From IMG/VR virus record IMGVR_UViG_3300032238_000336, positions 9,400-73,399 of that record: a stretch of DNA of 64,000 nucleotides, one strand, 5' to 3'. Positions 3,764 to 64,000 of this stretch are shown here, piece by piece. The first letter of the stretch is position 1, and every line of letters begins with the position of its first letter. Source of the DNA: a virus. The notes beneath the pieces are model-generated. The model made no database searches and had not been told where the DNA came from. It was given only the letters and a program-made list of their open reading frames with translations. The position numbers and the translations under genes were made by a program.

Positions 3764-4086
3764 ACTTCTTCTCCTTCATAAAGTTCTTCAATCTCTTCGT
3801 CTGTTTCAACTTCAACTGGAGCAACAGGCTCTACATATCCAGTAAGTTTAATATAGTCTATTTTTAATTCAGTATTAGGAACAAACATCGTAAATATTTT
3901 ATCCGAATTTATTAAAAATTCAGTCTGTTCGGTATAAGCAACCAAAAGTTTAACTAGTTTATTGTTTAATATTATACAAGGATTGATTAATTTACAATCT
4001 ACAACACCCACTACATCTGGGTCGATTTCTACTGGAACTATTTCAGATACCAAAATTCTGCCGTCCGTCAACACAATTCCTTCCAT
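3760..4086 (-). CDS. Hypothetical protein upstream of gp43
   Basis: 108-aa ORF, SD GAGG, stop overlaps the gp43 start. Confidence 0.75.
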   Translation of the reverse strand: MEGIVLTDGRILVSEIVPVEIDPDVVGVVDCKLINPCIILNNKLVKLLVAYTEQTEFLINSDKIFTMFVPNTELKIDYIKLTGYVEPVAPVEVETDEEIEELYEGEEV

Positions 4087-33811: not shown

Positions 33812-34003
33812 TCATTTAACTAAAGAACGTAAAAGTAATTTAATTTCATCAATATCATTTTTGATAGTATCAATTTCAGTTTTTTGATTTATAATAATAT
33901 TTTTAACTTTTAAGTATTCATTATATTCTGCATCACTGCAATTTAAAATCGCATTACTAGTTTCATCCCGGTAAAGTTCACTATGTCCTTTTACTGGTAT
34001 CAT
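33812..34003 (-). CDS. Small hypothetical protein
   Basis: VKGH..LYRD..S.AI.N; overlaps the stop of the upstream gene. Confidence 0.7.
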   Translation of the reverse strand: MIPVKGHSELYRDETSNAILNCSDAEYNEYLKVKNIIINQKTEIDTIKNDIDEIKLLLRSLVK

Positions 34004-48800: not shown

Positions 48801-51800
48801 CGAGCAGTTGAGACTGGTTAAATTTAATGTCTCTAATTTTTAATACTTCAGAATCAATTTGAATATAATCATTAATACTGAATCCAGAAACATCATTGAC
48901 AGAAATAGTAGTAGATAAACCAGTGATTCCTGATGATGGGATATCTAATGAAAGTCCAGATGTTTTCTGATTTACTGAAATAATTTTACTTCCTTCTAAA
49001 GATGAATATTGATTAGAAGAAATCGAAGATATCACAACAATGTCATTTGATACTAAACTATGAGGCATTGTCGTAATGCCTGTAATTATATTATTTTTAT
49101 TTTTAAATATTACATCTTTTAAAGTAGAAATTCCTACTGTTATATCAGTTAAGGGAACTCCATTAATACTCGATACAGAACAACTTGGACTAATGGTATT
49201 TGGAGTATTTTCAAATTGAAGTCTATCTCCAACCATAAAATTATCACCTGGAGATACTATATTAACAGAATCTATTCCAGACTTAATAATATTATTTACT
49301 ATAAATTCTTGCTTATATTTTGGGTCAATTTTATTGATTGGTAAATACCCAGAATTTTCAGAATTTAAATAATATGGACCAGTATTTCTAATAAAATTAA
49401 TAGAATCTAAATTTAAATCTTGATTAATATATCCGTTGAAATTTTTAACTATTGGAGTATTTTTAAATTCCGCAGCTATTGTATATGGATATACTGGAAT
49501 ATTTAAGTTATTTAATGTTGTAAAATAAGCATAGGTCCCTTCAGGAAACTCATTAGTTTGAATAAACATTCCGTTATGCTCATCCAAATCTCCAAAATTT
49601 GGAATATACCTATAATCTTCTATGAAATCACCATTATTCCATTGAGCAGGCCTTATACCACTTATACTATTGACATCTACATTAGGTAATTGATAACTAC
49701 TTTTAACTTTTGATGGAGAAGTTGATGAAGATAAATTTGCATAGGGTCCATAAATTGGATTTCCATCATAAGCCCACCCTAGAATAGGAGAAGCATTTCC
49801 CGAGTTATCTCCAACTTCATCTCTTAATTTTTTTGGTGGATAAAAATTAATATACTGCAAAGTTTTTTTAACATTATTACTTGGTATAAGAATTCCTTCT
49901 CCTGAAAAATTCTTTATTTTATTTGAGTATTTTTTATATTGGTTTAACGTCCATTTTGTTAAATTTGCTATAAATTTAGCAGAGCTTCCTCTCTTTACAA
50001 TTTGAAGACTGGTTTGTTTATTTACATATCCAAGTCCAGGATTTACTATAGACACATCTGTAATTCTACCATTTTCAACTTTAGGAACTAACAACGCATA
50101 TTTTCCAGAACCAGTAATTATAATATCAATATCTTCACCATATCCAGAACCACCAGATAAAATTTGAACTCCGACAATTTTTCCTTCAAATATAACTGGA
50201 TTAAGTAATGCTTCAGTAGATGGAGTTTGAATTTTTACATCTGGTCTTCTATGGAAGTTTATAATATCCGAAGACCCATAGTTAGTGCCATAATTTTCTA
50301 TAAATAGACTTTCAAATTCTCCCAATACAATAGGTACAAACACTGGAGAAATTGCAGTTGAAGATATTCCAGAAGTAGTTTCTACAACTACTTGAATAGG
50401 TGGATATTTAAAAGTATGTGTTCCTGAACCAATAGAATTTAGATTTACAAATTTATTATGTGAGTAATTGTAATAAAAATCTGTAGAAATAGTTTGTGCT
50501 AATCTGAACTTATTGTTATCAATTACATTTACAATATATTGACTAGTTGTAGATAGTCCTGAAACTCGTGTACCTGTAGTTGAGTATACAACGATATCTT
50601 TTTCTTTTAAATTATGGTTTTTAACAAGTATGTAATTATCAAAAGTATTAATTGAATCTGTAGTATCATCAATATAGTTTAAAGATGAAAGTTTAACAGT
50701 TTTATTTGAATAATTTTCTCCACTCTTTTTCACATATACTTCAGTTATAGTATTTTTAATATCGACTGTCTTTAAATAATAAATTCCAGTATTATTATTT
50801 CCAATAACAATTGCATTATTTTTATTGATAGAATCAGATTTATTTCGGTATAGTTTAATTTGAGTTGAATTTATAACACCAACATAATAAACTGAGTTGT
50901 TAACCAATCCCACTAATTCTGGATTTGAATTATTTTGATAAATTACTTGCTCAGTATTTTGAAAATTATGATTACTTGTAAAAGTAATCACATTTGATGA
51001 TATTGCAGAACCTAAAAAGTAAGATATGATAGGTGATTGTATTAAATTGCTTTCAAGCACTGCACCATATCCATTTCCACCAGTTATAGAAATCTTGGGT
51101 TTGACTTGATATCCAATACCTGGAGAAATTACCTGAATTGCTCTTACCGTGCCTCTCATATTGGCGTGAACTTGTGCTCCAATTCCTTGCCCCCCCTCAT
51201 CACTAATTTCAATCGTAGGGGCATTTATAACATCATAATCCTTTCCTGAATTTGAAATTGTAATGTCATTAATTTTACCATAATAATAACCTTCATTAAA
51301 TATAGCAGGTGAATATAACTCAACTCCATTAATAAGTAATCCTAAAGACTTACCAATTGTATTTTTACTTGTGGCAGTATTTTCATTATTTTTATTATTA
51401 ATATTAAATATTTTTAATAATTTTTGATGTTCTAAAACTGAATCATTTTTTCCTTCATATCCTAATTTTACAATAGTTCCAATATTTGATACACTAGTTT
51501 GAATCCCTATGTAATTATTAGCATAAAGATTACTATAACTGTATGATAATGATATTGAAGTTTCGGTGTATCTATTTACAAAATAAGTTCCAGTAGAAAG
51601 TCCAGTAAACTCTAAACTTGGAGTAAAATAAACCTTCTCTCCGGTATAAAAATAGTGTAGATCAGTAGTGGAAAATATAGATGTTTCAACTCCTGCAGAT
51701 ATTAAACCTACTTCTCTATTATCTAATATAATATTTTTATAATCAGGAAGTCCTGAAGATAATACAACTACATTATTGGTTGAGGTATCAATATAAGTAT

Positions 51801-53358
51801 TTTGAATTCGGGAAGTAATATTAGGGTTTAACTGACTTTTATTGATAACTTTTTGAAATCGATTGTAATTATTAGATAATACTCCTAAAACAGTAAACTT
51901 ATTTTTAGAAATAATAGTATTTACGGAAACTGTTATTGTAGGATTATTTGGAATTGTAGTGTCTGATAGTACTATACTATCTCCCTTATAAAGTAAAACA
52001 TCATCTACCGTGGTAATTATATTACCAGTGATATTTGATATATTATGGTAAGTTGGAAGATTGTACATCCAACTATTATATTCAGGAAAATTTTGATAGT
52101 TTTCACCAAAAGAAGAAAGATTTATTTTATCTCCAACTCTCAAATTAGAAGTTTTTGAATAATCAATAGATTCTATAATATTAAATATTCTAAACTCAAG
52201 AATATTGCCATTATCTAATGTAGAGTATGCAAAATTATTTTCAATAATATCAGTATTGAAAGGAACTTTAGTATTAACTCCACTTACATTTAGGAACTGG
52301 TTCGCACTTTTATTTTGGTAAGTAACTGGAATAAAGGTGGAACTATTAGATGAATGTATATAAACAGTACCTGAGATTGGGAAATCAACAGTTGAATCGA
52401 CAGAGATAGTATTAGAACCAATACTGATATCTTCTATTGTATTAGTTTTCTTTGTAGGAATGAAGTTATAGATAAAACTTTCTGAATCTAATGAGATTTC
52501 ATATAAGTCTCTGTTATCAGTCCTCCTATATTCTACATTATAAATTGCAGCACTAGCAGTCCTTCCTCCGGGAATAGTTTGAAATATAGTATTTCCAATT
52601 AAATCTATAGGATTTCCAACTCCACTAATCTTTTCAACAACAATATTTTTAGTGACTAGAGATGGATTGTTAGATGGTTTTATTGTAAAGTTTTTAGGAT
52701 CAATGATACTTATGTCCTTACCATATAAAACTTTAAATAGCAACTTATATGAAGTATCAGTTCCCTTTGAAGCATAGAAGTCTTTTGCTCGGGTTAGTAT
52801 ATTTTGTAAACTTATCTGTGGATAAAAGTTACGTTCTTCAAAACCTAAAAGATATTGGGACTTGAACTTTTTAAATATTTCATTAAAAAATAGTAAATTT
52901 AAATTAAATACCTTACTTCCAGAAGAATGTTCTTCAACTGAAGTTGATTTAAATATTAACTCAGAATGGTCTGAATTGATATCAATACCACTGAATCCAC
53001 GAACGCATCCGGTGAAAGATGTTGTAGTAATTCCAGTATAGGTAATAATCTCATTATCTATTTTCAAAAGTCCGTATGAACTAGGAAATCCAAAAGTATT
53101 ATTAACAAAAATTTCATCAGCAAAAGATAATACATTCGAACTTAACTCACAGGAGTTGTAGAACGTCTCTGCATTGAAGTTTTCAATTCCTTTATATTGA
53201 TTTAAATTGATTGCAAGGTCATTTAATCCCGTAGTATATTCCTGAGAAGTATAATATTGTTTTAAAAACTCTTGAAAAAGTGGAGACTCCTCATTTAAAA
53301 ATTCTGGAATTTGGGATTCTATAAAATTTTGAATTTTTACTCTTTTTATTTCTGACAT
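42865..53358 (-). CDS. gp7: Baseplate wedge initiator, very large (3497 aa)
   Basis: QIPEF, FY.SKGT..S.K.LF..LY and YYQ.FSY...HPSG motifs; lies between gp6 and gp8. Confidence 0.85.
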   Translation of the reverse strand: MSEIKRVKIQNFIESQIPEFLNEESPLFQEFLKQYYTSQEYTTGLNDLAINLNQYKGIENFNAETFYNSCELSSNVLSFADEIFVNNTFGFPSSYGLLKIDNEIITYTGITTTSFTGCVRGFSGIDINSDHSELIFKSTSVEEHSSGSKVFNLNLLFFNEIFKKFKSQYLLGFEERNFYPQISLQNILTRAKDFYASKGTDTSYKLLFKVLYGKDISIIDPKNFTIKPSNNPSLVTKNIVVEKISGVGNPIDLIGNTIFQTIPGGRTASAAIYNVEYRRTDNRDLYEISLDSESFIYNFIPTKKTNTIEDISIGSNTISVDSTVDFPISGTVYIHSSNSSTFIPVTYQNKSANQFLNVSGVNTKVPFNTDIIENNFAYSTLDNGNILEFRIFNIIESIDYSKTSNLRVGDKINLSSFGENYQNFPEYNSWMYNLPTYHNISNITGNIITTVDDVLLYKGDSIVLSDTTIPNNPTITVSVNTIISKNKFTVLGVLSNNYNRFQKVINKSQLNPNITSRIQNTYIDTSTNNVVVLSSGLPDYKNIILDNREVGLISAGVETSIFSTTDLHYFYTGEKVYFTPSLEFTGLSTGTYFVNRYTETSISLSYSYSNLYANNYIGIQTSVSNIGTIVKLGYEGKNDSVLEHQKLLKIFNINNKNNENTATSKNTIGKSLGLLINGVELYSPAIFNEGYYYGKINDITISNSGKDYDVINAPTIEISDEGGQGIGAQVHANMRGTVRAIQVISPGIGYQVKPKISITGGNGYGAVLESNLIQSPIISYFLGSAISSNVITFTSNHNFQNTEQVIYQNNSNPELVGLVNNSVYYVGVINSTQIKLYRNKSDSINKNNAIVIGNNNTGIYYLKTVDIKNTITEVYVKKSGENYSNKTVKLSSLNYIDDTTDSINTFDNYILVKNHNLKEKDIVVYSTTGTRVSGLSTTSQYIVNVIDNNKFRLAQTISTDFYYNYSHNKFVNLNSIGSGTHTFKYPPIQVVVETTSGISSTAISPVFVPIVLGEFESLFIENYGTNYGSSDIINFHRRPDVKIQTPSTEALLNPVIFEGKIVGVQILSGGSGYGEDIDIIITGSGKYALLVPKVENGRITDVSIVNPGLGYVNKQTSLQIVKRGSSAKFIANLTKWTLNQYKKYSNKIKNFSGEGILIPSNNVKKTLQYINFYPPKKLRDEVGDNSGNASPILGWAYDGNPIYGPYANLSSSTSPSKVKSSYQLPNVDVNSISGIRPAQWNNGDFIEDYRYIPNFGDLDEHNGMFIQTNEFPEGTYAYFTTLNNLNIPVYPYTIAAEFKNTPIVKNFNGYINQDLNLDSINFIRNTGPYYLNSENSGYLPINKIDPKYKQEFIVNNIIKSGIDSVNIVSPGDNFMVGDRLQFENTPNTISPSCSVSSINGVPLTDITVGISTLKDVIFKNKNNIITGITTMPHSLVSNDIVVISSISSNQYSSLEGSKIISVNQKTSGLSLDIPSSGITGLSTTISVNDVSGFSINDYIQIDSEVLKIRDIKFNQSQLLVDRISNIGIHSAGISLVKLLPTKFTFNEPKFNANLQENSVVYFNPSNSIGLGTIGTTYIDYGNTTYFVPPKSIYIENHKYYTGQPLTYNVGVAGVGLKVSNFPSSAQFQLVDGQTVYAVNYGANFVGLSTLGFTTSTGIGVSYNSLYFRDNSNSLGNSHKFTTQYDLISGKTERYTIIANTKYPHLLSSNDEIDLKVITSNTFEVELDYNSTIRKITTAPVTFNASTSVDVATSTIYISDDSLQTGDKVVYTNLTNPSIGGLVNNERYFVLRENPNAIKLTQYYDDISKNNYVKLTSTGTGVHSIAKVNPLIYLNKGNIFKFVGIGSYIKLYKDSKFLYELEPYRYTSSTLDTINQKYPNELYYTLDFNINSPLSQKQVSIDTDVISGGKIILLENLYDGKYSAIPTSDTSFRLNLKNKPNYFENIIANNATYSTTSKTAKGPIKTIKVNEKGKIHNKIPKITSILTTSGSNELLNTVSSKIGKIDTLERVKDGFDYPTDSTLLPKLSIPTIAILNKVSNVKSVDVLYGGKNYNTAPNLKVIGNNVLQLTTELNGNSVSKVSIILNDNTLDTPLPIVPVNNSNGFDIIQITNISPTQNSIQIDTTSYPLLSGIFPFSVGDEIFIENCNITSNAQNNYNSKDYNYVFFKVVSVDVNTSTIIYDITGLPGTFGSYTLANGYGTVVNRKDMATFKMNISDDVSYISGEKITGVDLQGNQTFIGYVMENGWDNKLKQIRINKSEGKLDIGYRLKGSISNLNGAITNVNNFNLKSTLGVARDKINYTQNNIGDLNNSLQKISDNNYYQNFSYAIRGEVPYSDWKEPVHSVIHPSGYREFSDLEVVSQAGNTVRMNPPKSEVTLIIKIDNQVSLSTRDNFAIVYDESQVNQSYAERISFGAIEPWNVAGVGLTAIKGIDLLPYILNNTNKVIQIDDISSQFTGTNAEITIQSNIPVTFNPDYPYNLGVSTAGLLVGDIVGYSTYHTYPENTGITSIGIGSVFTLYPHKSYSGIVTERLSFSRRLNGNIVSGISSFKLTNKNIPLFSRTFNSNDSSIVNLTTYSFNITNHNLQTGQKIFYSYQGGTPIRITTTNLVSGGISTDILPSTLYVNKINDNSFQVSGLSTSTRLELTSLGIGTHKFTVDNPNANALISIDNIIQKPLYNRPITLGLVNDANVGINSIYVNSGISSISTIDILKINDELLKIINVGIGSTNVINVERGFLGTQENNHTSGSDINIIRGDYNIIEDTIFFTSPPQGPTGLEGLKVSSSFSGRVFSRKFDPAYPDDKNLIFDDISDQFTGLSTFILKENQNNITQIYNNRNYGTNASNNPLVFINNVLQVPETDFTIQNSNANEISYLTGIPNSGKILNVGINTAFGYVPLVGAAATVSVSGLGTISNVYLTGAGSGYRTSPYINLGSIVGTGASIVANVGASGTITGFTIVNPGSGYTSTSVPIVNIDTPLPYYNLDVEYAPENSGLGTGAKVSILVASDTSIGNFLLNDPGSLYKVGDVLRVVGLTTDPTAGNLFDEFKLTVTETVSDIFSGYYPGQFIQFNDISNKFNGFERLFDITTPVNGIDTRITFKVPSGSDLTIENNFFILINGILQVPTVAYRYFAGRILFTEPPSSGSTCTILFYRGSSSDVEEVTPVQTIKDGDILQSRQNITSAITTEQLERVVKRIVQSNTLDTFVYTGYGITNTARPLSWTKQTADRIINGSLISKSRTTLKSNIIPNTFLINSVGINDTAVYVNDAFPYFSELDSGPNRLPEFKRNINILDYTSLDIIKYEKLTSVKVKGDYGSIVGINTFASSPGIQTGRIDFELKSNTYDNDNLGIGYSSLNTFGINSSQLEIGDYFVISNSNVICGHALTGITDSLGGMSNYPNSKVGTARSFIDGVYRVEDVTLPNAGIVTVKCNFVAVDGGLSVNIAGLSQTSFYGNYSWGKFYDYDNRQLGTPKQFDVNTDNGLIGLSTSSQVSRTVPLLL

Positions 53359-56427: not shown

Positions 56428-56565
56428 TTATCCTTTTCCTTGTCGATGATACGCTTTTTTAGCTTTATTTCGACTAGTTGCGGAATATTTTGTGTTCTTT
56501 CCTTGACCTTGACTTGTATTTTTTGGCTTACTCTCGATTTTCATCGTTTTCTTATTGACTGCCAT
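56428..56565 (-). CDS. Small basic hypothetical protein (45 aa)
   Basis: Manual translation MAVNKKTMKIESKPKNTSQGQGKNTKYSATSRNKAKKAYHRQGKG; SD AGGAG. Confidence 0.7.
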   Translation of the reverse strand: MAVNKKTMKIESKPKNTSQGQGKNTKYSATSRNKAKKAYHRQGKG

Positions 56566-56647
56566 TGAAATTTTCTCCTAATTTGGGTTTTTTACGCACA
56601 TTTGGCCTTCTAAAACGCATAAAATTCTTATAACGTTTCAAAGAAAC

Positions 56648-56690
56648 AAAAAAGATGCTTTGAAAGGTGGTTTGGTTCCTTTCAAAGCAT
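56648..56690 (-). terminator. Intrinsic terminator
   Basis: 13-bp stem ATGCTTTGAAAGG/CCTTTCAAAGCAT followed by CTTTTTT. Confidence 0.8.
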
Positions 56691-56717
56691 TCTATCATAT
56701 CCTCAGAGTGATGTCAA
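56689..56717 (-). promoter_or_regulatory. Sigma70-like promoter
   Basis: TTGACA-17-TAGAAT with TG extension. Confidence 0.65.
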
Positions 56718-56728
56718 AGATGATTTTC

Positions 56729-57487
56729 TTAGATTACCCGAGTTTTCTCGTGTCCGACACGGATTTTAGGATCGCACCAAATCTCAAAACCTGCTGCAAT
56801 GGCATCTAAACAGAAACTTACATCTTCTCCACACATATCTTGAACCTCTCCAGACTCAAAAACTTGCATCTTTGGAGCAAACCACGGATATTTCATCTCA
56901 GGATGTTCAAATACTCCTTTCTTAATCAAAGTCCAACCAAATCCAGTGTAATCCACTGTGAAAGGCTTCCGACGCTTACTCATTGTTTCCAAGGTCTCGT
57001 GATTCATCACACCACCATTACCTCTGAAATCATCTTCATCTAACCAGTGAGCTACTGAGGAAGTGTGACCATCTTCCGTACAATACCAACCAGCTGCAAT
57101 ATCTTTATCCATTGCAACTAGACGGTAGAAAGATTCGGTATTAAACACAATATCAGAGTCAATCCATAACTGGTAGTCATAATTTAGTTTACCATCCCAA
57201 GGAATTTGGTTAGGACCTCTCAGAACATTAGCTCCTAAGCACTTACAACGTGCAAAGTTTACCATTGAACTATAGTCCTGTGAAATCTGAATAGCAGCTC
57301 CTGCCTGAACTAAGTCAAAACATAGTTGAACAAAGTTCTTCAGATAAACATATGAAACTCCTCTTCCAGGTAGACAAAATACAATTGTCTTTCCTTTAAT
57401 TAACTCTTTTGCTGCTTGTAAATCAAACTCATCCTCAAGGGTCTTTCCCTCAGGAGCTTTTGCCTTTACTGTAAATCCTTTTGCCAT
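56729..57487 (-). CDS. Conserved cyanophage protein, glycosyltransferase (GT-A)-like
   Basis: LWIDSDIVF (DxD), TGFGW.LIK, GEDVSFC and VGHEK motifs. Confidence 0.8.
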   Translation of the reverse strand: MAKGFTVKAKAPEGKTLEDEFDLQAAKELIKGKTIVFCLPGRGVSYVYLKNFVQLCFDLVQAGAAIQISQDYSSMVNFARCKCLGANVLRGPNQIPWDGKLNYDYQLWIDSDIVFNTESFYRLVAMDKDIAAGWYCTEDGHTSSVAHWLDEDDFRGNGGVMNHETLETMSKRRKPFTVDYTGFGWTLIKKGVFEHPEMKYPWFAPKMQVFESGEVQDMCGEDVSFCLDAIAAGFEIWCDPKIRVGHEKTRVI

Positions 57488-57535
57488 ATTGTTTTCAAAT
57501 TTGTAACGTGATTATTATAGCACCCTCAGTCAATA

Positions 57536-57700
57536 TTATGAGTGCTGTTCGTTGGTATTTATAGAGACAGTAATATCCTTATCTGACCCCCCGTTCGTCC
57601 AAACTAACCCTCGGATAATCTTTAAGTTTTCTTCGATATTTTCATTTGATATTTCAGTTAATACTACTTTCCCTTCTACGGAAATATTATAAGTATTCAT
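57536..57700 (-). CDS. Small hypothetical protein (54 aa)
   Basis: Manual translation MNTYNISVEGKVVLTEIS...IRGLVWTNGG. Confidence 0.6.
   Translation of the reverse strand: MNTYNISVEGKVVLTEISNENIEENLKIIRGLVWTNGGSDKDITVSINTNEQHS
57556..57563 (-). promoter_or_regulatory. T4-type late promoter
   Basis: Exact TATAAATA upstream of the ORF starting at 57487. Confidence 0.55.
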
Positions 57701-57836
57701 CTTCTACTTTTCTTAGAAGTTCTTGAATATCATCTTTGATACCTTCACTAAGTATTAACCTCTCGTCATTCTCAATTCTATACTGAAGTGTTTCTATTAG
57801 AATATCTTTCTCATATTCATCAAAATCTATTTTCAT
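57687..57836 (-). CDS. Small acidic hypothetical protein (49 aa)
   Basis: Manual translation MKIDFDEYEKDILIETLQYRIENDE...; overlaps the next ORF. Confidence 0.6.
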   Translation of the reverse strand: MKIDFDEYEKDILIETLQYRIENDERLILSEGIKDDIQELLRKVEDEYL

Positions 57837-58056
57837 TGTTTTACCTATTTTTCAAAGGGGACATTTAAAAATTATATATGATTTATATTTTTTCACAAAA
57901 AACACTTTTTAGCAATATTTTTTTCCTGGGGAATTTTTTTCAAAGAGAGGTAATATATTATCGATTTTGGTAGTTTATAGCTTAGGGTAGTACATCGAAA
58001 TTATATAAGGGGGGGCATCGGTAACGGTTAATAATACCCAACAATCATAATACACT

Positions 58057-58566
58057 GTCTATTAGAATAAACGAAGAACTGCGATTAGACTGTTATTCTA
58101 ATAGACGAAGGCAAAAAGTAACGAAGTAAAACAACACTGTTTGATTAAAATACCCTACCCTCCCCACGTATCCCATAATCAAAAAACTGCGATTATCAGT
58201 AACACGAAGTCACTCTCAATCACAGTTGCATCTTATCAGTAATACGAAGTAATGTCAACTTCTCAGATATTATAATCACGAAGTGATTGCCCGAAGTTGA
58301 TTACATTTAGAGGTCGATGTAACGAAGTAAAACAACACTGTTTGTAAAAAATACATAACCCTCCCCCCGTATGCCGAGTTGAGTGTAACGAACTACACAG
58401 TGTTATGTGTTACTTCCCCTAGACGAAGTTGGCAGGGCAAGTGTGCAAACAGTGCTGATAATAACGAAGTAAGCAACACTGTTTGCACGAAATACACTAC
58501 CCTCCCCACGTATTCGGTATTCTCGCTCTACACGAAGTAAGCACCGAGAATACCTATACACGAAGT
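58057..58566 (+). repeat. Non-coding region with 12 same-strand CGAAG motifs, several hairpins and three ~53-bp direct repeats; origin-like
   Basis: CGAAG at 58072, 58106, 58122, 58205, 58245, 58279, 58292, 58323, 58424, 58465, 58533 and 58561; repeats at 58119, 58320 and 58462. Confidence 0.85.
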
Positions 58567-58719
58567 CTAGACTGCAACCACCTCAGCATCTTCTGCACTC
58601 ACAACTGCCTCTACATCGTTATCAGGGGCAATCGCATTCAGAATGTTGAGAATATCGTTGCCAGTGCTACCCTTGCGGAGCATAGCAATCATCAGGTCAC
58701 GGTTGAGTTCGTTAGTCAT
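58567..58719 (-). CDS. Small early-type hypothetical protein (50 aa)
   Basis: MTNELNRDLMIAMLRKGSTGNDILNILNAI...; downstream of the promoter at 58774-58831. Confidence 0.7.
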   Translation of the reverse strand: MTNELNRDLMIAMLRKGSTGNDILNILNAIAPDNDVEAVVSAEDAEVVAV

Positions 58720-58773
58720 TGTTTTGGTTGTTTTGGTGTATTGAACGTGTCGGGGGTGTCCCTCCACCCCCTT

Positions 58774-58831
58774 AGAATACCATATTTTGGGGTCTGTGCT
58801 CATTGAATGTGCCAGAAAGATTAGTGGCACA
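58774..58831 (-). promoter_or_regulatory. Palindrome-type early promoter (copy a)
   Basis: TGTGCCA-N10-TGGCACA plus TGGTATTCT -10. Confidence 0.7.
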
Positions 58832-58909
58832 TAATGTCTGAGACTTACCGTGCGACTGGGAGACTGGGAGTTCTCTCATAAGCATTCCTAATAACTGGGG
58901 TTCCGGGGG

Positions 58910-58938
58910 TTGACATTTTTTGAGAAGTGTGGTATACT
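58910..58938 (+). promoter_or_regulatory. Consensus-like sigma70 promoter on + strand
   Basis: TTGACA-17-TATACT with TG extension; no ORF downstream. Confidence 0.75.
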
Positions 58939-58954
58939 TATGCAGGCCTAGACG

Positions 58955-59068
58955 ACAAGAACTACCACCATTAAATCATACATTAAAAGACAAAGAATAA
59001 GAGCATTAAATGAGATATCAATACAAGAACTACCACCATTAAATCATACATTAAAAGACAAAGAATAA
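58955..59068 (+). repeat. 46-bp perfect direct repeat, two copies
   Basis: ACAAGAACTACCACCATTAAATCATACATTAAAAGACAAAGAATAA at 58955-59000 and 59023-59068. Confidence 0.95.
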
Positions 59069-59255
59069 CACATATCTATTGGTAAACAATAACTCTTTTT
59101 AGATAAGCATTAGTAATCAAACAATCACAAAAGACTATATTTTTTTAAACCTTTTTATTGTTTATGATTATGATGATATCAACACAAAAACAGTCTATTT
59201 ATGATGATTTCAAATAGTATATTTGAACCTTCACATACTGTATAATATCACACAT

Positions 59256-59480
59256 TCATTCAGATTGTCCCAGAGATTGATACTGAGAAATATACCTCAA
59301 GAAATCAGGAACTTTATCATTATCATAAAAGCAATCATACTCCTCTGGAATACTTACCTCTGGATACTGATAACTAATCTCATTCATTAAATATTGACCA
59401 TACCGTAAATCACCTGAATGAGTAATAAAACTTGCATTCACATTCTGTATAAACTGATTAAAATCAAAACTCATCATCAT
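59256..59480 (-). CDS. Hypothetical protein
   Basis: LRYGQ.LMN...DCFY.ND motif. Confidence 0.7.
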   Translation of the reverse strand: MMMSFDFNQFIQNVNASFITHSGDLRYGQYLMNEISYQYPEVSIPEEYDCFYDNDKVPDFLRYISQYQSLGQSE

Positions 59481-59564
59481 CTTTTGAATTGACTGAATGA
59501 AGAGCATAGTTTAATACAAGTGCTACACCCATTAGAGTAAGATACACTACAACATAAGTCATAA

Positions 59565-59714
59565 TCAGTCAAGGCAGATAAAATCATAATCAATAATGTC
59601 TTCACCTTCTTCAAGATTTAGACATTCAGCAATAGCATCAGGAATGAACTTACGAGGATGACTATTCTCATCAATCGCAATTTCAATCTTAATAACCCAG
59701 TTTTTGGTATTCAT
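59565..59714 (-). CDS. Hypothetical protein (49 aa)
   Basis: MNTKNWVIKIEI...HPRKFIPDAI; tightly packed with neighbours. Confidence 0.65.
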   Translation of the reverse strand: MNTKNWVIKIEIAIDENSHPRKFIPDAIAECLNLEEGEDIIDYDFICLD

Positions 59715-59716
59715 AA

Positions 59717-59947
59717 TCAAGGAAGAATACAGAAAGAAGCACAGAACTTGCGAACCCAATGTAGAGTATCAAAATACCCACGAGGATTAGACATCACCAT
59801 ACTTGTATCCTTACGAGGATTGTAAGCAACAGCAATGTACCTATAAACATCAGGTGCTTCTTCAATCTCTTGAATCCACATTTGATTTACATTACCAGAC
59901 TGCCAATCCCAACGGGAAGTAGTATAATGAAAAACATCAGTAATCAT
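59717..59947 (-). CDS. Hypothetical protein (76 aa)
   Basis: MITDVFHYTTSRWDWQSGNVNQMWI... Confidence 0.7.
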   Translation of the reverse strand: MITDVFHYTTSRWDWQSGNVNQMWIQEIEEAPDVYRYIAVAYNPRKDTSMVMSNPRGYFDTLHWVRKFCASFCILP

Positions 59948-59969
59948 TTTCTTATTAAATGAAGTAGAT

Positions 59970-60125
59970 TTAGTTTTGAGTGTATCCATCAAACCATTCT
60001 CCCTCTTTACGAGTTTTAGGGTCTCGGCAATGTTCTTGTGCTTGTTCAAGAGTTAAACCTCGTTTGATAATACGATTCGATTTGTTCAAGTGAGGAGCAT
60101 AGGATCGAATAATGTTGTAAGTCAT
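59970..60125 (-). CDS. Hypothetical protein (51 aa)
   Basis: Manual translation MTYNIIRSY...IKRGLTLEQAQEHCRDPKT...WFDGY. Confidence 0.7.
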   Translation of the reverse strand: MTYNIIRSYAPHLNKSNRIIKRGLTLEQAQEHCRDPKTRKEGEWFDGYTQN

Positions 60126-60175
60126 TGTGATTTAGATAATGAAAGTGGTTGGTGCTTTATGAATGTTCCAGAGGA

Positions 60176-60367
60176 TTAACTGGCACATTCATAATCGTAA
60201 TCTACAATATCATCTGGTAGCATTAGTTGAGTTCCCATTGAAAACTCATCTAACAAATAATCCACAGTGATATTCATTTGATTTGCATACCATTCAAACA
60301 TCAAATAATCTTCAATATGAATTTCGTATCCTTCGGTTTCAATAATCTGTTGATTCATTTTAGTCAT
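60176..60367 (-). CDS. Hypothetical acidic protein
   Basis: A..MNITVDYL.DEF motif; start uncertain. Confidence 0.65.
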   Translation of the reverse strand: MTKMNQQIIETEGYEIHIEDYLMFEWYANQMNITVDYLLDEFSMGTQLMLPDDIVDYDYECAS

Positions 60368-60503
60368 TGGTGTTATCAAGTGCGGAATGGACTTTATCAA
60401 ATAAAGAGTTCATATCAATATCATACAACTCTTGAATCTCATCCCAATCTTCGTGAAACTCAATCAAAGTTAAAATATCTTGTAAATCTTTTTGATTAAA
60501 CAT
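60360..60503 (-). CDS. Hypothetical acidic protein (47 aa)
   Basis: Manual translation MFNQKDLQDILTLIEFHEDWDEI...; first ORF after promoter b. Confidence 0.65.
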   Translation of the reverse strand: MFNQKDLQDILTLIEFHEDWDEIQELYDIDMNSLFDKVHSALDNTND

Positions 60504-60526
60504 TTGCTTTGATTGATTACTTCGTA

Positions 60527-60585
60527 ATCATAGCACGGATTTGGTCGGTTTGGACGATTATAGGGACAGTGCTACAACTGGCACA
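60527..60585 (-). promoter_or_regulatory. Palindrome-type early promoter (copy b)
   Basis: TGTGCCA-N10-TGTCCCT plus TGCTATGAT -10. Confidence 0.7.
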
Positions 60586-60591
60586 TCAGTA

Positions 60592-60783
60592 TTACTTACT
60601 ACTCTCTTTTGCTAATGTTACCTTATCATATTCATTTGGATAAACTAACAAACACACATCCTTTGATTTATCTTCAAATCTATGAATACAAACTGTAATA
60701 TATTTCTCACAGATAAAATCAACAACACCGTGCATTCCACGATAATGAACTTCAATTCCTTCTGCAAATGTTATTCTTGGCAT
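60592..60783 (-). CDS. Hypothetical protein (63 aa)
   Basis: GVVDFICEKYITVCI...VCLLVYP. Confidence 0.7.
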   Translation of the reverse strand: MPRITFAEGIEVHYRGMHGVVDFICEKYITVCIHRFEDKSKDVCLLVYPNEYDKVTLAKESSK

Positions 60784-60888
60784 TTAATGAATAAAAACAA
60801 CTCTCTTGCATTAGTTTATCAGCATTATGTGATACTGTAAATCCTATTGCAAGAGAAGTTAAAGTAAAACAACAGATGAGAAAACTAT

Positions 60889-61296
60889 TCATCGTGTGCG
60901 AAGATAAAAACCTACCCAATCTGCACGTTTGTACATTTCCTCACGAGACTTATCATCTAAAAGATTATACCTCACACCTTTGGCAGGAGATTTCCAGGAT
61001 GCAGATTTGTACACATCACCAGTATTCAAATCAACAAATGCGTGAGCACTTCTTTGACCACTGGGTTGAGTGATATGAACAATACGAGCATACTTTCTAC
61101 CTTTCTCGTAAGTATATTCATCTACACCTTCACCCATTGCAAGTTGATTGATTTGCTCAATGTGATAATCAACATTCTCTTCCTTGTTGATATAGTTTCT
61201 ATGAAGAGCAATAGAATACTCTTGATAGTTTGTGCGAAGAACTCGGCAAAACTCTTCAATTCGGTCAATAACTTTATTAGCAGTGGCAGTAGTCAT
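60889..61296 (-). CDS. Conserved phage hypothetical protein
   Basis: GRKYARIV...HAFVD..TGDVYK.ASW..PAKG.RYN motif. Confidence 0.8.
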   Translation of the reverse strand: MTTATANKVIDRIEEFCRVLRTNYQEYSIALHRNYINKEENVDYHIEQINQLAMGEGVDEYTYEKGRKYARIVHITQPSGQRSAHAFVDLNTGDVYKSASWKSPAKGVRYNLLDDKSREEMYKRADWVGFYLRTR

Positions 61297-61300
61297 TTTT

Positions 61301-61474
61301 TCAATCATCTCCAAAGTTATTAGAAAGGAAATCTTCAAGTTCATCAAGTTTGCTATCACTCAAAGAGCAAACATACTCACTGATAATAGTAGCAAGCAAA
61401 TCAGGGTCTTGCCTACATTTCTCATACAAGAACTGTTCAAGTTCTTCACCAGTAGAATAACGAAAATCAGTCAT
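61301..61474 (-). CDS. Hypothetical acidic protein
   Basis: MTDFRYSTGEELEQFLYEKC...; ATGA overlap with the upstream ORF. Confidence 0.65.
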   Translation of the reverse strand: MTDFRYSTGEELEQFLYEKCRQDPDLLATIISEYVCSLSDSKLDELEDFLSNNFGDD

Positions 61475-61596
61475 TTGAAGTTCAGTTTGCGTTTGATATG
61501 TTGAAGTGCTTGCTTGCGTGCTTTTAATTGTGCTTTGCAAGTTCCTTTCGTTTTTTTATTTTTGTTTGAGTTGTGTTGCCAATTTGGAATAGTCAT
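61471..61596 (-). CDS. Small basic hypothetical protein (41 aa)
   Basis: Manual translation MTIPNWQHNSNKNKKTKGTCKAQLKARKQALQHIKRKLNFK; first ORF after promoter c. Confidence 0.65.
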   Translation of the reverse strand: MTIPNWQHNSNKNKKTKGTCKAQLKARKQALQHIKRKLNFK

Positions 61597-61618
61597 TTCT
61601 TTTTTTTGGTATGAACCT

Positions 61619-61677
61619 ATTATAGGACATAATCATCCCGATTGGAGGTGTGATGTGCCAGAAGCACAAGTGTCACA
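61619..61677 (-). promoter_or_regulatory. Palindrome-type early promoter (copy c)
   Basis: TGTGACA-N10-TGGCACA plus TATAAT. Confidence 0.7.
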
Positions 61678-61903
61678 GGGTCTCAACGTCCTCTAGCAAT
61701 TCTGGGTAGTAATCTGTTACTTCTGTAATGAGTTCTTCATCAGTATAATCTGCTAGATTATCTTTCAGAGTATCATAAACCAAACACTCCATAGTTTTAT
61801 AATCCATTCCTTCAATTATTTGCTGGATATAATCCTCAACAAGTTGCTTACGGTCAAAAGACATTTTGTTAAACTCCAAGATTTCAGTGTAAAGGTCAGA
61901 CAT
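61673..61903 (-). CDS. Hypothetical acidic protein (76 aa)
   Basis: DY.QQIIEGMD.K...Y.DEEL..EV..YYPELL. Confidence 0.75.
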   Translation of the reverse strand: MSDLYTEILEFNKMSFDRKQLVEDYIQQIIEGMDYKTMECLVYDTLKDNLADYTDEELITEVTDYYPELLEDVETL

Positions 61904-62019
61904 TAGACATCAATTTCAGCAAGTTTCTTTTGCTTACGCAAATCAGTGATAATCATTTGAAGTTCTGCAATATCTTCATACAGAACTTCTGCTTCATCAG
62001 CAAGATTCTCATATTGGTA
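61903..62019 (-). pseudogene. Probable 5'-truncated gene remnant
   Basis: Open frame YQYENLADEAEVLYEDIAELQMIITDLRKQKKLAEIDV ends in a TAATG overlap; no upstream start, frame begins inside promoter copy d. Confidence 0.45.
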
Positions 62020-62026
62020 TGAACCT

Positions 62027-62085
62027 ATTATAGGACATAATCATCCCGATTGGAGGTGTGATGTGCCACTAGAATAAGTGGCACA
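62027..62085 (-). promoter_or_regulatory. Palindrome-type early promoter (copy d)
   Basis: TGTGCCA-N10-TGGCACA plus TATAAT. Confidence 0.7.
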
Positions 62086-62095
62086 TTTTCATACA

Positions 62096-62263
62096 TTATT
62101 CCTTAACTACAACTTCAAGAGGTACTTTAATCGCAGACAACCAAGTATTCAAATTATCCATCAAATCTTCATTTGATGGATTTTCAAAATTGATATTGAT
62201 ACTGCGAATAGTATCACGATTGTCATTACGACAATCATAGTCCAAACGATAAGAGGTTTCCAT
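62096..62263 (-). CDS. Hypothetical protein (55 aa)
   Basis: Manual translation METSYRLDYDCRNDNRDTIRSININFENP...; TGATG coupling to the upstream ORF. Confidence 0.65.
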   Translation of the reverse strand: METSYRLDYDCRNDNRDTIRSININFENPSNEDLMDNLNTWLSAIKVPLEVVVKE

Positions 62264-62433
62264 CAAGCAGCAACGGGTTCAGTTGCATTTTCCAGAACCG
62301 CAGAATCATAGTTATCCAATGCTTCTACAAGTTCAGCACCAGTTTCTGCTTTCGTGATATTTACAATCAGTTGAGCACCAGCAGGATTGGTATCAACGAG
62401 TTCAGCAGCAAGAGCAAGTAGTTTGGTAGACAT
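62263..62433 (-). CDS. Hypothetical protein (56 aa)
   Basis: Manual translation MSTKLLALAAELVDTNPAGAQLIVNITKAETGAELVEALD... Confidence 0.7.
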   Translation of the reverse strand: MSTKLLALAAELVDTNPAGAQLIVNITKAETGAELVEALDNYDSAVLENATEPVAA

Positions 62434-62512
62434 AATAATAAAATCAAGGTGAATAGATTGGTGCTTTTTAAGTCATCACCAGGACTATTGAAATCAAACA
62501 CTCAAAGAGTAT

Positions 62513-62683
62513 TCATTTCATTTTAGCCACTAACTCTTTAACCTTATCTACAGACTTACATTGTGCTCCCTTGATTGCTTTTGTAATCGAAGTTGTAAGC
62601 ATCAAACATTGATGACTTCTGACATCACAAATTGCATACACTTGTTGACGAGTTTTAATATCAAAAGTGGTTCGGATTATCAT
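62513..62683 (-). CDS. Hypothetical protein (56 aa)
   Basis: Manual translation MIIRTTFDIKTRQQVYAICD... Confidence 0.6.
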   Translation of the reverse strand: MIIRTTFDIKTRQQVYAICDVRSHQCLMLTTSITKAIKGAQCKSVDKVKELVAKMK

Positions 62684-62728
62684 TCTGTTTGATTGAAAGG
62701 TGAAAAAAAGAGTGTGCTATGCTATCTC

Positions 62729-62902
62729 TTAAACACGAGAGAGAGCATCAGTTTTTTGCTTGGGATTTTGAGTTTGTTTTACCCAAGTAGAAGTGCGACG
62801 GGAATAAACTTGTGAAGGAAGTTTAGATTTTCCTTGCACCTCATTGATAAGAGAAATGAAGTGAAGAAAAAATTGTTTTTCCATTCGTTGCTCGGTGGTC
62901 AT
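62729..62902 (-). CDS. Hypothetical protein (57 aa)
   Basis: MTTEQRMEKQFFLHFISLINEVQGKSKLPSQ...; SD AAGGA; promoter upstream. Confidence 0.7.
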   Translation of the reverse strand: MTTEQRMEKQFFLHFISLINEVQGKSKLPSQVYSRRTSTWVKQTQNPKQKTDALSRV

Positions 62903-62924
62903 TCCTTGACTGTGAACTTCGTTC

Positions 62925-62953
62925 ATCATAGCACGGATTGGAGTGTTTGTCAA
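62925..62953 (-). promoter_or_regulatory. Sigma70-like promoter
   Basis: TTGACA-17-TATGAT with TG extension. Confidence 0.8.
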
Positions 62954-63001
62954 GGGGTTACGAGATGTTCTAGTCATTAGCATTCCTGATGGGTATAGGA
63001 A

Positions 63002-63181
63002 CTAAACTAATTCCCAGTGATAACCAATGCCACAACCATAATTATCATAAATCACTGTGCGTTTGATAATGTTGGAATCAAGCATAGGTTGAATTGCTCG
63101 CATCCGTTGCGAAGAATTCAAAACAGAATTAGTGTTTCCAATCTCTTCAAGAATTGCAGATTGTGCTTTAGTGAACTTCAT
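63002..63181 (-). CDS. Hypothetical protein (59 aa)
   Basis: MKFTKAQSAILEEIG...; first ORF after promoter f. Confidence 0.65.
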   Translation of the reverse strand: MKFTKAQSAILEEIGNTNSVLNSSQRMRAIQPMLDSNIIKRTVIYDNYGCGIGYHWELV

Positions 63182-63205
63182 CTGTTTTCTTTTGATTACT
63201 TCGTA

Positions 63206-63265
63206 ATCATAGCACGGATTCCGGGGGTTTGGGGGGTGTAATGTGCCAGAAGGATTAGTGGCACA
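63206..63265 (-). promoter_or_regulatory. Palindrome-type early promoter (copy f)
   Basis: TGTGCCA-N10-TGGCACA plus TGCTATGAT -10. Confidence 0.7.
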
Positions 63266-63279
63266 TCGTATCATTGGTC

Positions 63280-63609
63280 TCACATAAATTGATGAGACAA
63301 TGCGTATTTCACAATCTCAGTGCGATTATTTTTATATTCAAGAATCAAATCAACTACGTGCTTCAAATTTGTTTCATCTACTTCGTTTACATTACTATTT
63401 TTATTAAGTGCATTCATAATAGATGCAATCTCAAAATCATTTGAGAATAAAATATTTCGATGGTTATCAATTTCAAGATAATCATCAACTGCATCAGAAC
63501 TTAAATGAAATGGAATGTCAGGAGATAACATACCCAACGTTGCAAGACGTTCGGTAGCACCAACAACCCACAGCATTTTACACTCATCAATTGACAGTTG
63601 TGCTTTCAT
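63280..63609 (-). CDS. Hypothetical protein (109 aa)
   Basis: MKAQLSIDECKMLWVVGA.ERLATLG... Confidence 0.7.
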   Translation of the reverse strand: MKAQLSIDECKMLWVVGATERLATLGMLSPDIPFHLSSDAVDDYLEIDNHRNILFSNDFEIASIMNALNKNSNVNEVDETNLKHVVDLILEYKNNRTEIVKYALSHQFM

Positions 63610-63646
63610 TGTATTAAGAATAAAAAAAAGAAAGAGAGGGTGTGAA

Positions 63647-64000
63647 TCACACCCCACAAAGTTGTTTTGTCACAGAACCAGATGCTTGACGATTCAAAGA
63701 AACACCAGCACCTACAGTTGAACCAACATAAGCACCTTCTCCACTTGCACCATTCATTTTCTTTCCACGTACAAATTGCATCGTGGAAAGTTTATCTTTC
63801 ACTGCGTTTGCATCATCGTGTACTCGGTTTTCTTCTTGTTTCATTTCAAGCAAACGCAGTGCTACTTTATCAGCAAATGCCTTGCGGAAATTAAGTTTGA
63901 AAGACCGAGAAACACTCTTACCAGTCAGATCAGACATAATCTTTTCTGCTGAATGTGCAACTTCTGCTTCTTTCTCCATCACCTGAACCAGATAATCAAA
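63647..64000 (-). CDS. Partial ORF (3' part), resembles the C-terminal domain of DUF2786-type proteins
   Basis: Frame open to the window edge; SFKLNFRKAFA..V..RL...G...G..VSLNRQ. Confidence 0.55.
   Translation of the reverse strand, partial: FDYLVQVMEKEAEVAHSAEKIMSDLTGKSVSRSFKLNFRKAFADKVALRLLEMKQEENRVHDDANAVKDKLSTMQFVRGKKMNGASGEGAYVGSTVGAGVSLNRQASGSVTKQLCGV

Follow-up and report, generated by a model that had tools for sequence, protein, structure and literature searches.

What is the function of a gene-free stretch of viral DNA in which one short word recurs more than a dozen times on one strand and never on the other? The question is raised by a locus in the 64,000-nucleotide stretch analysed here (the window), which comprises bases 9400-73399 of a single 73,399-bp virus contig, IMG/VR record IMGVR_UViG_3300032238_000336. 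Between the stop codon of a gene of 50 amino acids (aa), at 58567, and the start of a 49-aa gene, at 57836, lies a gap of 730 bp (57837-58566), most of which is taken up by an array of TTCGT words. The array is real, conserved in relatives and unannotated. We interpret it as some 13 same-oriented sites for a sequence-specific protein, set in the middle of a conserved non-coding region that is, in our tentative judgement, most likely a replication origin.

A strand-polar array and its relatives

All long open reading frames (ORFs) of the window lie on the minus strand. The genes that flank the gap run from right to left, and the word CGAAG on the plus strand is therefore CTTCG in gene sense, in which the repeat reads (A)(C)TTCGT. 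A sequence-only reading of the window had reported 12 copies of CGAAG and two variants, all on the plus strand, and had put the number expected by chance below one. The count is borne out: the 12 copies lie at 58072-58565, where the minus strand has none, and the variants are ACGAAC at 58388 and ACGAAA at 58487. Word counts over the contig likewise agree: the 730-bp gap contains 13 ACGAA, where the remainder averages 0.46 per 730 nt (Poisson P ~5e-15). They single out this one locus, the next densest cluster having four. The longer word ACGAAGT occurs 14 times on the plus strand of the 73,399-bp contig, nine times inside 58121-58566 and five times elsewhere, and is absent from that strand throughout 58567-64000. 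The array and a longer repeat within it, which the sequence-only reading had overlooked and which a repeat search brought out, are as follows.

58057-58566, minus strand: array of 13 TTCGT words (gene sense; ACGAA on the plus strand) and one CTTCGG, irregularly spaced at 16-83 nt
58118-58174, minus strand: 57-nt unit, copy 1 (gene sense ATACGTGGGGAGGGTA..AATCAAACAGTGTTG..TTACTTCGTTAC)
58319-58375, minus strand: 57-nt unit, copy 2, 86% identical to copy 1
58460-58516, minus strand: 57-nt unit, copy 3, 70% identical to copy 1

Thirteen TTCGT words thus stand on one strand within 510 bp, and none on the other. Units of similar build, with a G/C-rich block, a T-rich stretch, AATCAAACAGT and TTCGT, are found in relatives. 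Small peptides encoded by the 57-nt units were considered and dropped, the frames and start codons being inconsistent among the copies. The description of the region as free of ORFs stands in the sense that it has no conserved frame; it does not stand literally, as two mechanical ORFs (58379-58540, plus strand; 58403-58561, minus strand) cross the array. Neither is a conserved frame, because the alignment with the closest relative, a locus that we call L003, has indels of 1, 3 and 10 nt. Contigs from four DNA sequencing runs of one study differ at seven positions in 58040-58566 and at none inside the ACGAA cores, a zero that is not significant, as about one such variant would be expected there by chance.

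Relatives were found through the genes on either side of the gap.

58567-58719, minus strand: 50-aa gene (MTNELNRDLMIAMLRKG...), directly upstream of the array, its stop codon abutting the first repeat
57687-57836, minus strand: 49-aa acidic gene (MKIDFDEYEKD...), the first downstream gene and a marker of the array-bearing lineage
57536-57700, minus strand: 54-aa gene (MNTYNISVEG...), overlapping the 49-aa gene
56729-57487, minus strand: gene of a 252-aa conserved cyanophage protein (phrog_1574), the anchor for finding relatives

A first search, anchored on the 252-aa protein, gave 80 IMG/VR loci, among them L003, whose protein is 96% identical. Six of these loci (L003, L014, L024, L036, L058 and L081) have 8-14 TTCGT directly upstream of the matching small genes. 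A second search, with the alignment of the 49-aa protein as query, gave 80 loci, 65 of them with at least 1 kb of upstream sequence. The sequence-only reading had proposed looking for the same array at the syntenic place in relatives, and it is there: 44 of the 65 loci carry 8-17 TTCGT on the gene strand within 1.3 kb upstream of the 49-aa gene. None of the 65 has more than three copies of the reverse complement, and 34 have none, against about 1.4 estimated from base composition. Elsewhere the array is rare. A pattern scan of IMG/VR for a triple ACTTCGT returned 117 stretches, nearly all of them regular tandem repeats in unrelated contigs, and an array of the present kind appeared only in a further relative, L117, and in contigs already in the set. 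The exact pattern of the 57-nt unit had no match in IMG/VR, and BLAST of the array had none among 50,697 phage records. Among cultured phages the 49-aa gene was found in S-SCSM2R only, which has no TTCGT within 1 kb upstream of the core element described below.

How the array has changed between close relatives points to the short word as the part that matters. The window and L003 are collinear through the array, and 62 of 65 core letters are identical (95%), compared with 330 of 445 letters (74%) in the remainder (Fisher p 3e-5). Of the 13 sites, 11 are kept in L003 and two are lost, and, as read by eye from the alignment, three sites of L003 have no counterpart in the window; in the group of loci like L058, units of 13 and 17 nt have been gained and lost. 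These comparisons indicate that the core word TTCGT is under selection and that its surroundings are not. To judge from the alignments, gain and loss of units around a kept core is the pattern of a binding-site array held by selection on the number of sites. The flanks of the word are weakly constrained: in a matrix of 100 sites from eight arrays, in which the core is invariant because TTCGT was the search word, A occupies position -2 in 59%, C position -1 in 50% and T position +7 in 57%, and position +5 tends not to be A.

Does the word belong to a host system? Among the 120 bacterial and archaeal loci listed as having three clustered DnaA-type boxes (oriC-like loci), there is no TTCGT array; the densest, two of the 120, have five words per 600 bp. 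TTCGT thus seems specific to phages, as far as these 120 matches represent host origins; the 80 titles listed include no marine picocyanobacterial record.

Some loci depart from the common arrangement. L081 has at 855-1448 a 197-aa ORF with an HNH-like motif (seen by eye, without a family search) between the core element and the 49-aa gene, and in L219, L225, L240, L256 and L265 the array is shifted about 1 kb upstream, perhaps through insertions like that of L081. Arrays of the L058 type (L246 and relatives, alignment columns 307-331) keep a near-perfect palindrome, GTACACAG-TT-CTGTGTAC, that is lacking from the window; we take it to resemble a cyanobacterial LexA box whose spacer is shorter by one base.

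Boxes, core element and A/T tract beside the array

In many relatives the array has a second kind of site at its side. The sequence TTTTCCACA is given as the cyanobacteria-specific DnaA box in PMC4674748. Exact copies of it, from 2 to 11, adjoin or interleave with the repeats in 27 of the 44 arrays, whereas among the loci with fewer than eight TTCGT only 1 of 21 has boxes. They occur in both orientations, directly upstream of the TTCGT words and partly interleaved with them, and a composite, TGTGGAAAAC-TA-TTCGTTAT, recurs in related arrays. Their density is far from that of chance matches: L058 has eight exact TTTTCCACA in the 223 bp of 3800-4022, where about 4.6 matches with one mismatch are expected in the whole locus. 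The order in relatives is fixed, with boxes, array, core element, A/T tract with palindrome and 49-aa gene following one another; in an intermediate relative, L205, a gene related to the 50-aa one stands between the boxes and the array. By eye, against motifs that we presumed for them, NtcA boxes, LexA boxes, low-affinity DnaA sites and primase sites gave no convincing match.

The remaining elements of the gap lie on the downstream side of the array or within it.

57962-58037, minus strand: core element, non-coding; a C-run, TTATATAA, then ACTACCCTAAGCTATAAAC
57870-57945, no strand assigned: A/T-rich tract, with A-runs around a short palindrome (AAAAAAATTCCCCAGGAAAAAAAT); kept in L003
58230-58258, minus strand: predicted sigma-70-like promoter TTGACA-17-TAAGAT, with TG, a consensus match that faces the downstream genes
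58192-58219, minus strand: second predicted sigma-70-like site, TTGAGA-16-GATAAT, whose -10 is not conserved in L003

The core element is far more widespread than the array. It was found in 71 distinct sequences from related loci, where it takes the form of a C-run, TATATAAAA and ACTACCCTAACCTACAA; its consensus is a G/C-rich run, TATATAAAA, about 8 nt, then ACTACCCTAA(C/T/G)CTA(C/T)AA. It matches 151 cultured cyanomyovirus records, and in the 30 matches listed the place is unannotated or called 'hypothetical protein'. Further examples lie at 4475-4550 of L058 and, in cultured phages, at 2969-3044 of L083 (S-ShM2) and 2979-3054 of L084 (S-RIM12). The core element and the A/T side of the gap together (58056-57837) are 91% identical to L003. 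There is no match to an Rfam family, and a stem around the TATA-like box of the core element, which by eye had seemed to covary, was dropped as a candidate, the longest stem averaging 4.56 nt compared with 4.35 nt for shuffled arms. The core element may serve as a protein site, or as a promoter followed by a conserved leader. Boxes accompany it in the cultured phages: within ~1.2 kb upstream of it lie four of the seven TTTTCCACA boxes of the S-ShM2 genome and three of the six of S-RIM12, a fourth S-RIM12 box being ~1 kb downstream. These box clusters (record positions 52811-53092 in S-ShM2, 47476-47736 in S-RIM12) have no TTCGT array, and some of the boxes stand directly before start codons of small genes.

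The A/T tract and the neighbouring G run that the sequence-only reading had pointed out are both present. The tract at 57870-57945 is 80% A+T, against 68% for the contig, which places it in the top 3% of 76-nt windows, and seven G stand at 58010-58016. The arms of the palindrome in the A-tract vary among loci yet stay complementary, as TTCC/GGAA, TTTTGCC/GGCAAAA, TTTTC/GAAAA and TTCTG/CAGAA (window 57895-57945, minus strand; L014 2905-2935; L081 862-890; L058 4570-4600), and the palindrome may be a bidirectional terminator or a cruciform-prone site.

The promoter-like sites call for more caution. The site at 58230-58258 is kept in L003 as TTGACA-17-TAGAAT in an alignment by eye, and in L117 about five tandem promoter-like sites, also read by eye, are each overlapped or preceded by ACTTCGT. 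A strict promoter pattern is found in about a dozen of some 40 arrays. A scan of 56500-64000 gave 42 sites where 30 are expected, and promoter-like matches are therefore common here by chance.

Flanking genes, phage and stems

In which kind of phage does this locus sit? The longest ORF of the window (3497 aa; 42865-53358, minus strand) matches baseplate and virion-protein PHROGs and is syntenic with gp7 of S-SSM7. Next to it are encoded baseplate wedge proteins like gp6 and gp25 and an S-adenosylmethionine (SAM) decarboxylase. The gp6-like protein is 60% identical to its counterparts in the Synechococcus phages S-SCSM2R and S-SSM7, and the annotation of S-SSM7 gives the identical gene order gp25-gp6-gp7. 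The window is therefore, by its gene content, part of an uncultured T4-like cyanomyovirus. A second giant ORF (2426 aa; 34000-41280) likewise follows gp6 on the minus strand. The sequence-only reading had set the array at a junction of early and structural regions, and its position agrees with this, small genes forming a block on one side of it and the baseplate genes gp25/gp6/gp7 lying on the other. An N4-like phage, which the 3497-aa ORF had brought to mind, was rejected, since the ORF is a gp7-like baseplate or virion protein.

In L003, L117 and L205, too, the array is preceded by a relative of the 50-aa gene. Upstream of this gene in the window (58735-58850, minus strand), the inverted repeat GTGCCA..TGGCAC is accompanied by a strong G/C-rich hairpin, GGGGGTG-GAGGGA-CACCCCC; L003 and L205 have both. 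In L003 the hairpin has one pair changed to T-G, which pairs (as U-G) on the gene-sense strand only. All inspected array-bearing loci also encode, downstream of the 252-aa gene, a very basic protein of 45 aa (…TKYSATSRNKAKKAYHRQGKG; window 56428-56565, minus strand) that has no Pfam match.

Within the array, four stems named by the sequence-only reading are present, three of them recovered by the repeat search and one (58255-58300) read from the sequence.

58057-58106 (arms 58057-58070/58093-58106), no strand assigned: 14-nt inverted repeat GTCTATTAGAATAA/TTATTCTAATAGAC, 100%
58255-58300, no strand assigned: stem TCAACTTC (58255-58262)/GAAGTTGA (58293-58300), enclosing AATCAC-GAA-GTGATT
58443-58488 (arms 58443-58457/58474-58488), no strand assigned: inverted repeat GTGCAAACAGTG/CACTGTTTGCAC, 15 nt, 93%, loop ACTTCGT
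58516-58554 (arms 58516-58525/58545-58554), no strand assigned: inverted repeat GGTATTCTCG/CGAGAATACC, 10 nt, 100%, loop ACTTCGT

Their fate in L003 differs from stem to stem. The first is not kept, L003 having in its place a direct repeat, CTTCGTGTATTAGAAT, twice. In the second the inner hairpin is identical and the outer stem has a 1-nt deletion. The third is kept with one end pair changed and no compensatory change. The fourth reads AGTATTCACT/AGTGAATACT in L003, and is considered with the arguments about function below.

The sequence-only reading had seen in these stems the C-GAA-G mini-hairpin, acting as a single-strand signal. The window has some likeness to d(GCGAAGC) mini-hairpins and to the hairpin signals of the G4 origin and the N4 promoters, in that 12 of its 14 words are C-GAA-G on the plus strand and one has a 6-bp stem with a GAA loop. 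It differs from them in that this is a double-stranded T4-like phage with no N4-type virion RNA polymerase, the neighbouring 3497-aa protein being of the gp7-like kind, and N4-like recognition is accordingly not supported. Most word sites of the window have a stem of 2 bp only. Across the family, the base before TTCGT is C in 50 of the 100 sites from eight arrays, and the closing pair is thus not family-wide. RNAalifold on 15 related arrays (65-97% identity) gave -17.5 kcal/mol over 681 columns, with a covariation term of -0.29 and compensatory changes in 0 of 38 predicted pairs. The mini-hairpin mechanism fails because compensatory pairs are absent and the closing pair is not shared, and the loss of the 58057-58106 stem in L003 tells in the same direction. 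Searched with Rfam 15, 56500-60000 yielded only three matches at chance level (E 0.29-0.99), and seven related loci yielded none; no transfer RNA was found at the locus. We therefore do not see, in these predictions, a conserved structured RNA or a conserved single-strand fold; in the window's own lineage, one or two hairpins may yet have a local role.

A proposed origin and its alternatives

Of the functions put forward for the array in the sequence-only reading, a replication origin is the best-supported, and mainly through the relatives. What survives of that idea is a unique, conserved, strand-polar array with an A/T tract, promoters and, in 27 of 44 cases, DnaA boxes; the hairpin mechanism attached to it does not survive, and no result of the analysis speaks for the packaging signal offered beside it. 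The origin is preferred because a single polar locus has, in most relatives, a box cluster on one side and an A/T tract on the other, with a promoter directed towards the tract. We infer a sequence of events in which the protein that reads the word would coat the array while, in many relatives, host DnaA would bind the adjoining cluster of cyanobacterial boxes. The complex could then open the A/T-rich tract some 200-400 bp downstream, perhaps aided by transcription from the sigma-70-like promoter, and replication proteins of the phage T4 type would be loaded at the opened tract, where replication would start.

The arrangement recalls several known origins and differs from each of them in part. 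In iterons of the plasmid and P1 oriR type, repeats of ~17-22 bp follow one another at a regular, helix-phased spacing. The present locus shares with those origins its same-oriented repeats, its A/T stretch, the DnaA boxes of the relatives and its restriction to one place per genome. It is unlike them in its short irregular word, in having no recognisable rep gene, in the boxless state of the window and in belonging to a lytic T4-like phage with replication proteins of its own.

Origins of T4 itself offer closer relations and a different anatomy. As described in PMC3016281, oriF and oriG consist of a promoter and a downstream A+T-rich unwinding element and are primed by an R-loop, and oriE depends on an early promoter and contains direct repeats whose role is unproven. 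The T4 record places oriE 1.7 kb upstream of gene 6, and the window array is ~2.8 kb upstream of the gp6 gene; both are thus one-orientation direct repeats of T4-type phages, a few kb upstream of gp6-gp7. The 12-nt repeats of oriE (GTTGAAGGTAAT) lie within the gene 5 coding sequence with a period of 24 bp, unlike the present ones, which are non-coding, irregular and of different sequence, so that the place is similar and the anatomy differs. Relatives of repEA and repEB did not turn up, in searches none of which was aimed at them. With oriF and oriG the locus shares a promoter-like site facing a downstream A/T-rich tract. It differs in that those minimal origins are described as being ~100 bp long with a MotA-dependent middle promoter, whereas here the site is sigma-70-like, the A/T tract is ~300 bp away, and an array and a core element are added.

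A number of observations weigh against an origin. Near the array of the window there is no TTTTCCACA, and matches with one mismatch come no nearer than 57889 and 62288; L003, which has both array and core, also lacks a DnaA box within one mismatch near its array. The sequence studied here thus lacks the strongest mark of an origin. Nor did an initiator candidate emerge, as the 50-, 49- and 54-aa flanking proteins match no Pfam, PHROG or ESM Atlas family. The word is short, with an informative length of ~5-9 bp over the 100 sites, and its spacing is irregular, unlike the longer and evenly spaced classical iterons; the pairwise distances between ACGAA show no period of 10-11 bp and none at 10.5 bp. 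Cumulative GC skew, a check proposed in the sequence-only reading, reaches no extreme here, whether in the contig or in two complete cultured genomes with the core element, a result that is itself weak because the genes are co-oriented and the skew is monotonic. Finally, two features leave room for a role at the RNA level. A sequence scan found no recognisable terminator after the 50-aa gene, so that the array is probably transcribed; among the sequencing runs listed as containing the sequence there is no RNA run. At 58516-58554, three pairs have changed on both sides between the window and L003 with the pairing kept, and these double changes hint at some structural role in a lineage that consists of two sequences.

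If the origin reading is correct, a more specific form of it is possible, albeit doubtful. The family would represent an undescribed type of lytic-phage origin, with a polar set of TTCGT iterons read by an initiator and, in most members, oriC-like DnaA boxes, by which host DnaA would be recruited or hijacked to start or to time phage replication; the window would then belong to a DnaA-independent branch.

Could the words instead be operators? Here TTCGT would be the operator through which a transcription factor of phage or host controls tandem early promoters of the downstream operon, from the 49-, 54- and 252-aa genes onward to the baseplate genes, with DnaA as a co-regulator in relatives. 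The array always stands upstream of this one operon, and sigma-70-like sites occur within arrays, two in the window (one of them kept in L003) and about five in tandem in L117. The words, however, keep no fixed distance to the -10 or -35 (8-15 nt in the cases read), the signal in the site matrix ends at +8, and the promoter-like sites themselves exceed chance by little (the 42 against 30 given above). Promoter control regions are not known to approach 13-17 operators together with up to 11 DnaA boxes. We regard this explanation as unlikely.

Transcription of the array would also allow it to act as an RNA decoy. Its 13 (A)CUUCGU words, several in hairpin loops, would act as a sponge of the CsrB and RsmZ kind on an RNA-binding protein or nuclease; the phage translational repressor RegA is a candidate target, on a presumed likeness of motif. 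Like those sponge RNAs, the array has about a dozen short words on one strand in ~500 nt. Its strict polarity, the abutment on the upstream stop codon with no terminator between, three stems with the word in the loop and the kept pairing at 58516-58554 would all suit such a molecule, as would the better folding of the gene-sense array than of shuffled sequences (z -5.6) and a tendency of the words to be less paired than other positions. The opposite strand, however, folds nearly as well (z -5.3), as inverted-repeat DNA generally does on both strands, and the unpaired tendency, also seen on both strands, follows by construction from the absence of the complementary word from the strand. Unlike in CsrB and RsmZ, no conserved folding was found in relatives by the consensus of the 15 arrays, Rfam has no match, and the tight interleaving of the words with DnaA boxes, which are DNA sites, favours a role at the level of DNA. 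A sponge is thus quite unlikely.

A titration locus would take effect on DNA, as datA of E. coli does. The array, with the boxes of the relatives, would soak up a host protein and so shut down host replication or transcription, with no phage start at this place. Many sites at one locus, multiplied by the copies of the phage genome, would serve this end, and the presence of host-type DnaA boxes in 27 of 44 arrays with no initiator gene found beside them is what one would expect. Titration nevertheless does not account for the constant arrangement of array, core element and A/T tract, and the lack of TTCGT arrays in the 120 oriC-like loci listed means that no host system with the word is evident. 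We consider it improbable.

The weakest alternative, that the array is a functionless residue of recombination cassettes, namely promoter/stem-loop modules like PeSLs left in a hyperplastic region after the loss of small genes, would account for the block of small variable genes, the stem-loops and promoter-like sites and the gain and loss of units, and is highly improbable given a core word under selection, confined to one locus (ACGAAGT nine times here against five elsewhere on the plus strand) at a fixed place in 44 of 65 loci. PeSLs, composite motifs of a stem-loop and a sigma-70-like promoter between ORFs according to PMC4122927, are dispersed, whereas here a single gene-free locus carries another word, absent from the other intergenic spaces of the contig, and the stems and two promoter-like sites of the window do not form a repeated unit of stem-loop then promoter. 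According to PMC4503421, the cyanophage S-PM2 does not show the dense PeSLs of other T4-like phages.

Within the literature searched we found no published description of the TTCGT array, and no paper on a cyanomyovirus replication origin or on the use of host initiation factors by T4-like cyanophages. These phages are among the most abundant viruses of oceans and lakes, and the locus offers for them a concrete, testable origin candidate that combines host-type boxes, a new polar word and a core element common to 151 cultured records, while the TTCGT word could serve as bait for the protein that reads it. Use of DnaA would couple phage replication to the replication state of the host, which would be to our knowledge the first such link in a T4-type phage. 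Should the array prove instead to be a decoy or an operator cluster, it would still be an unannotated, selected element in dozens of environmental phage genomes.

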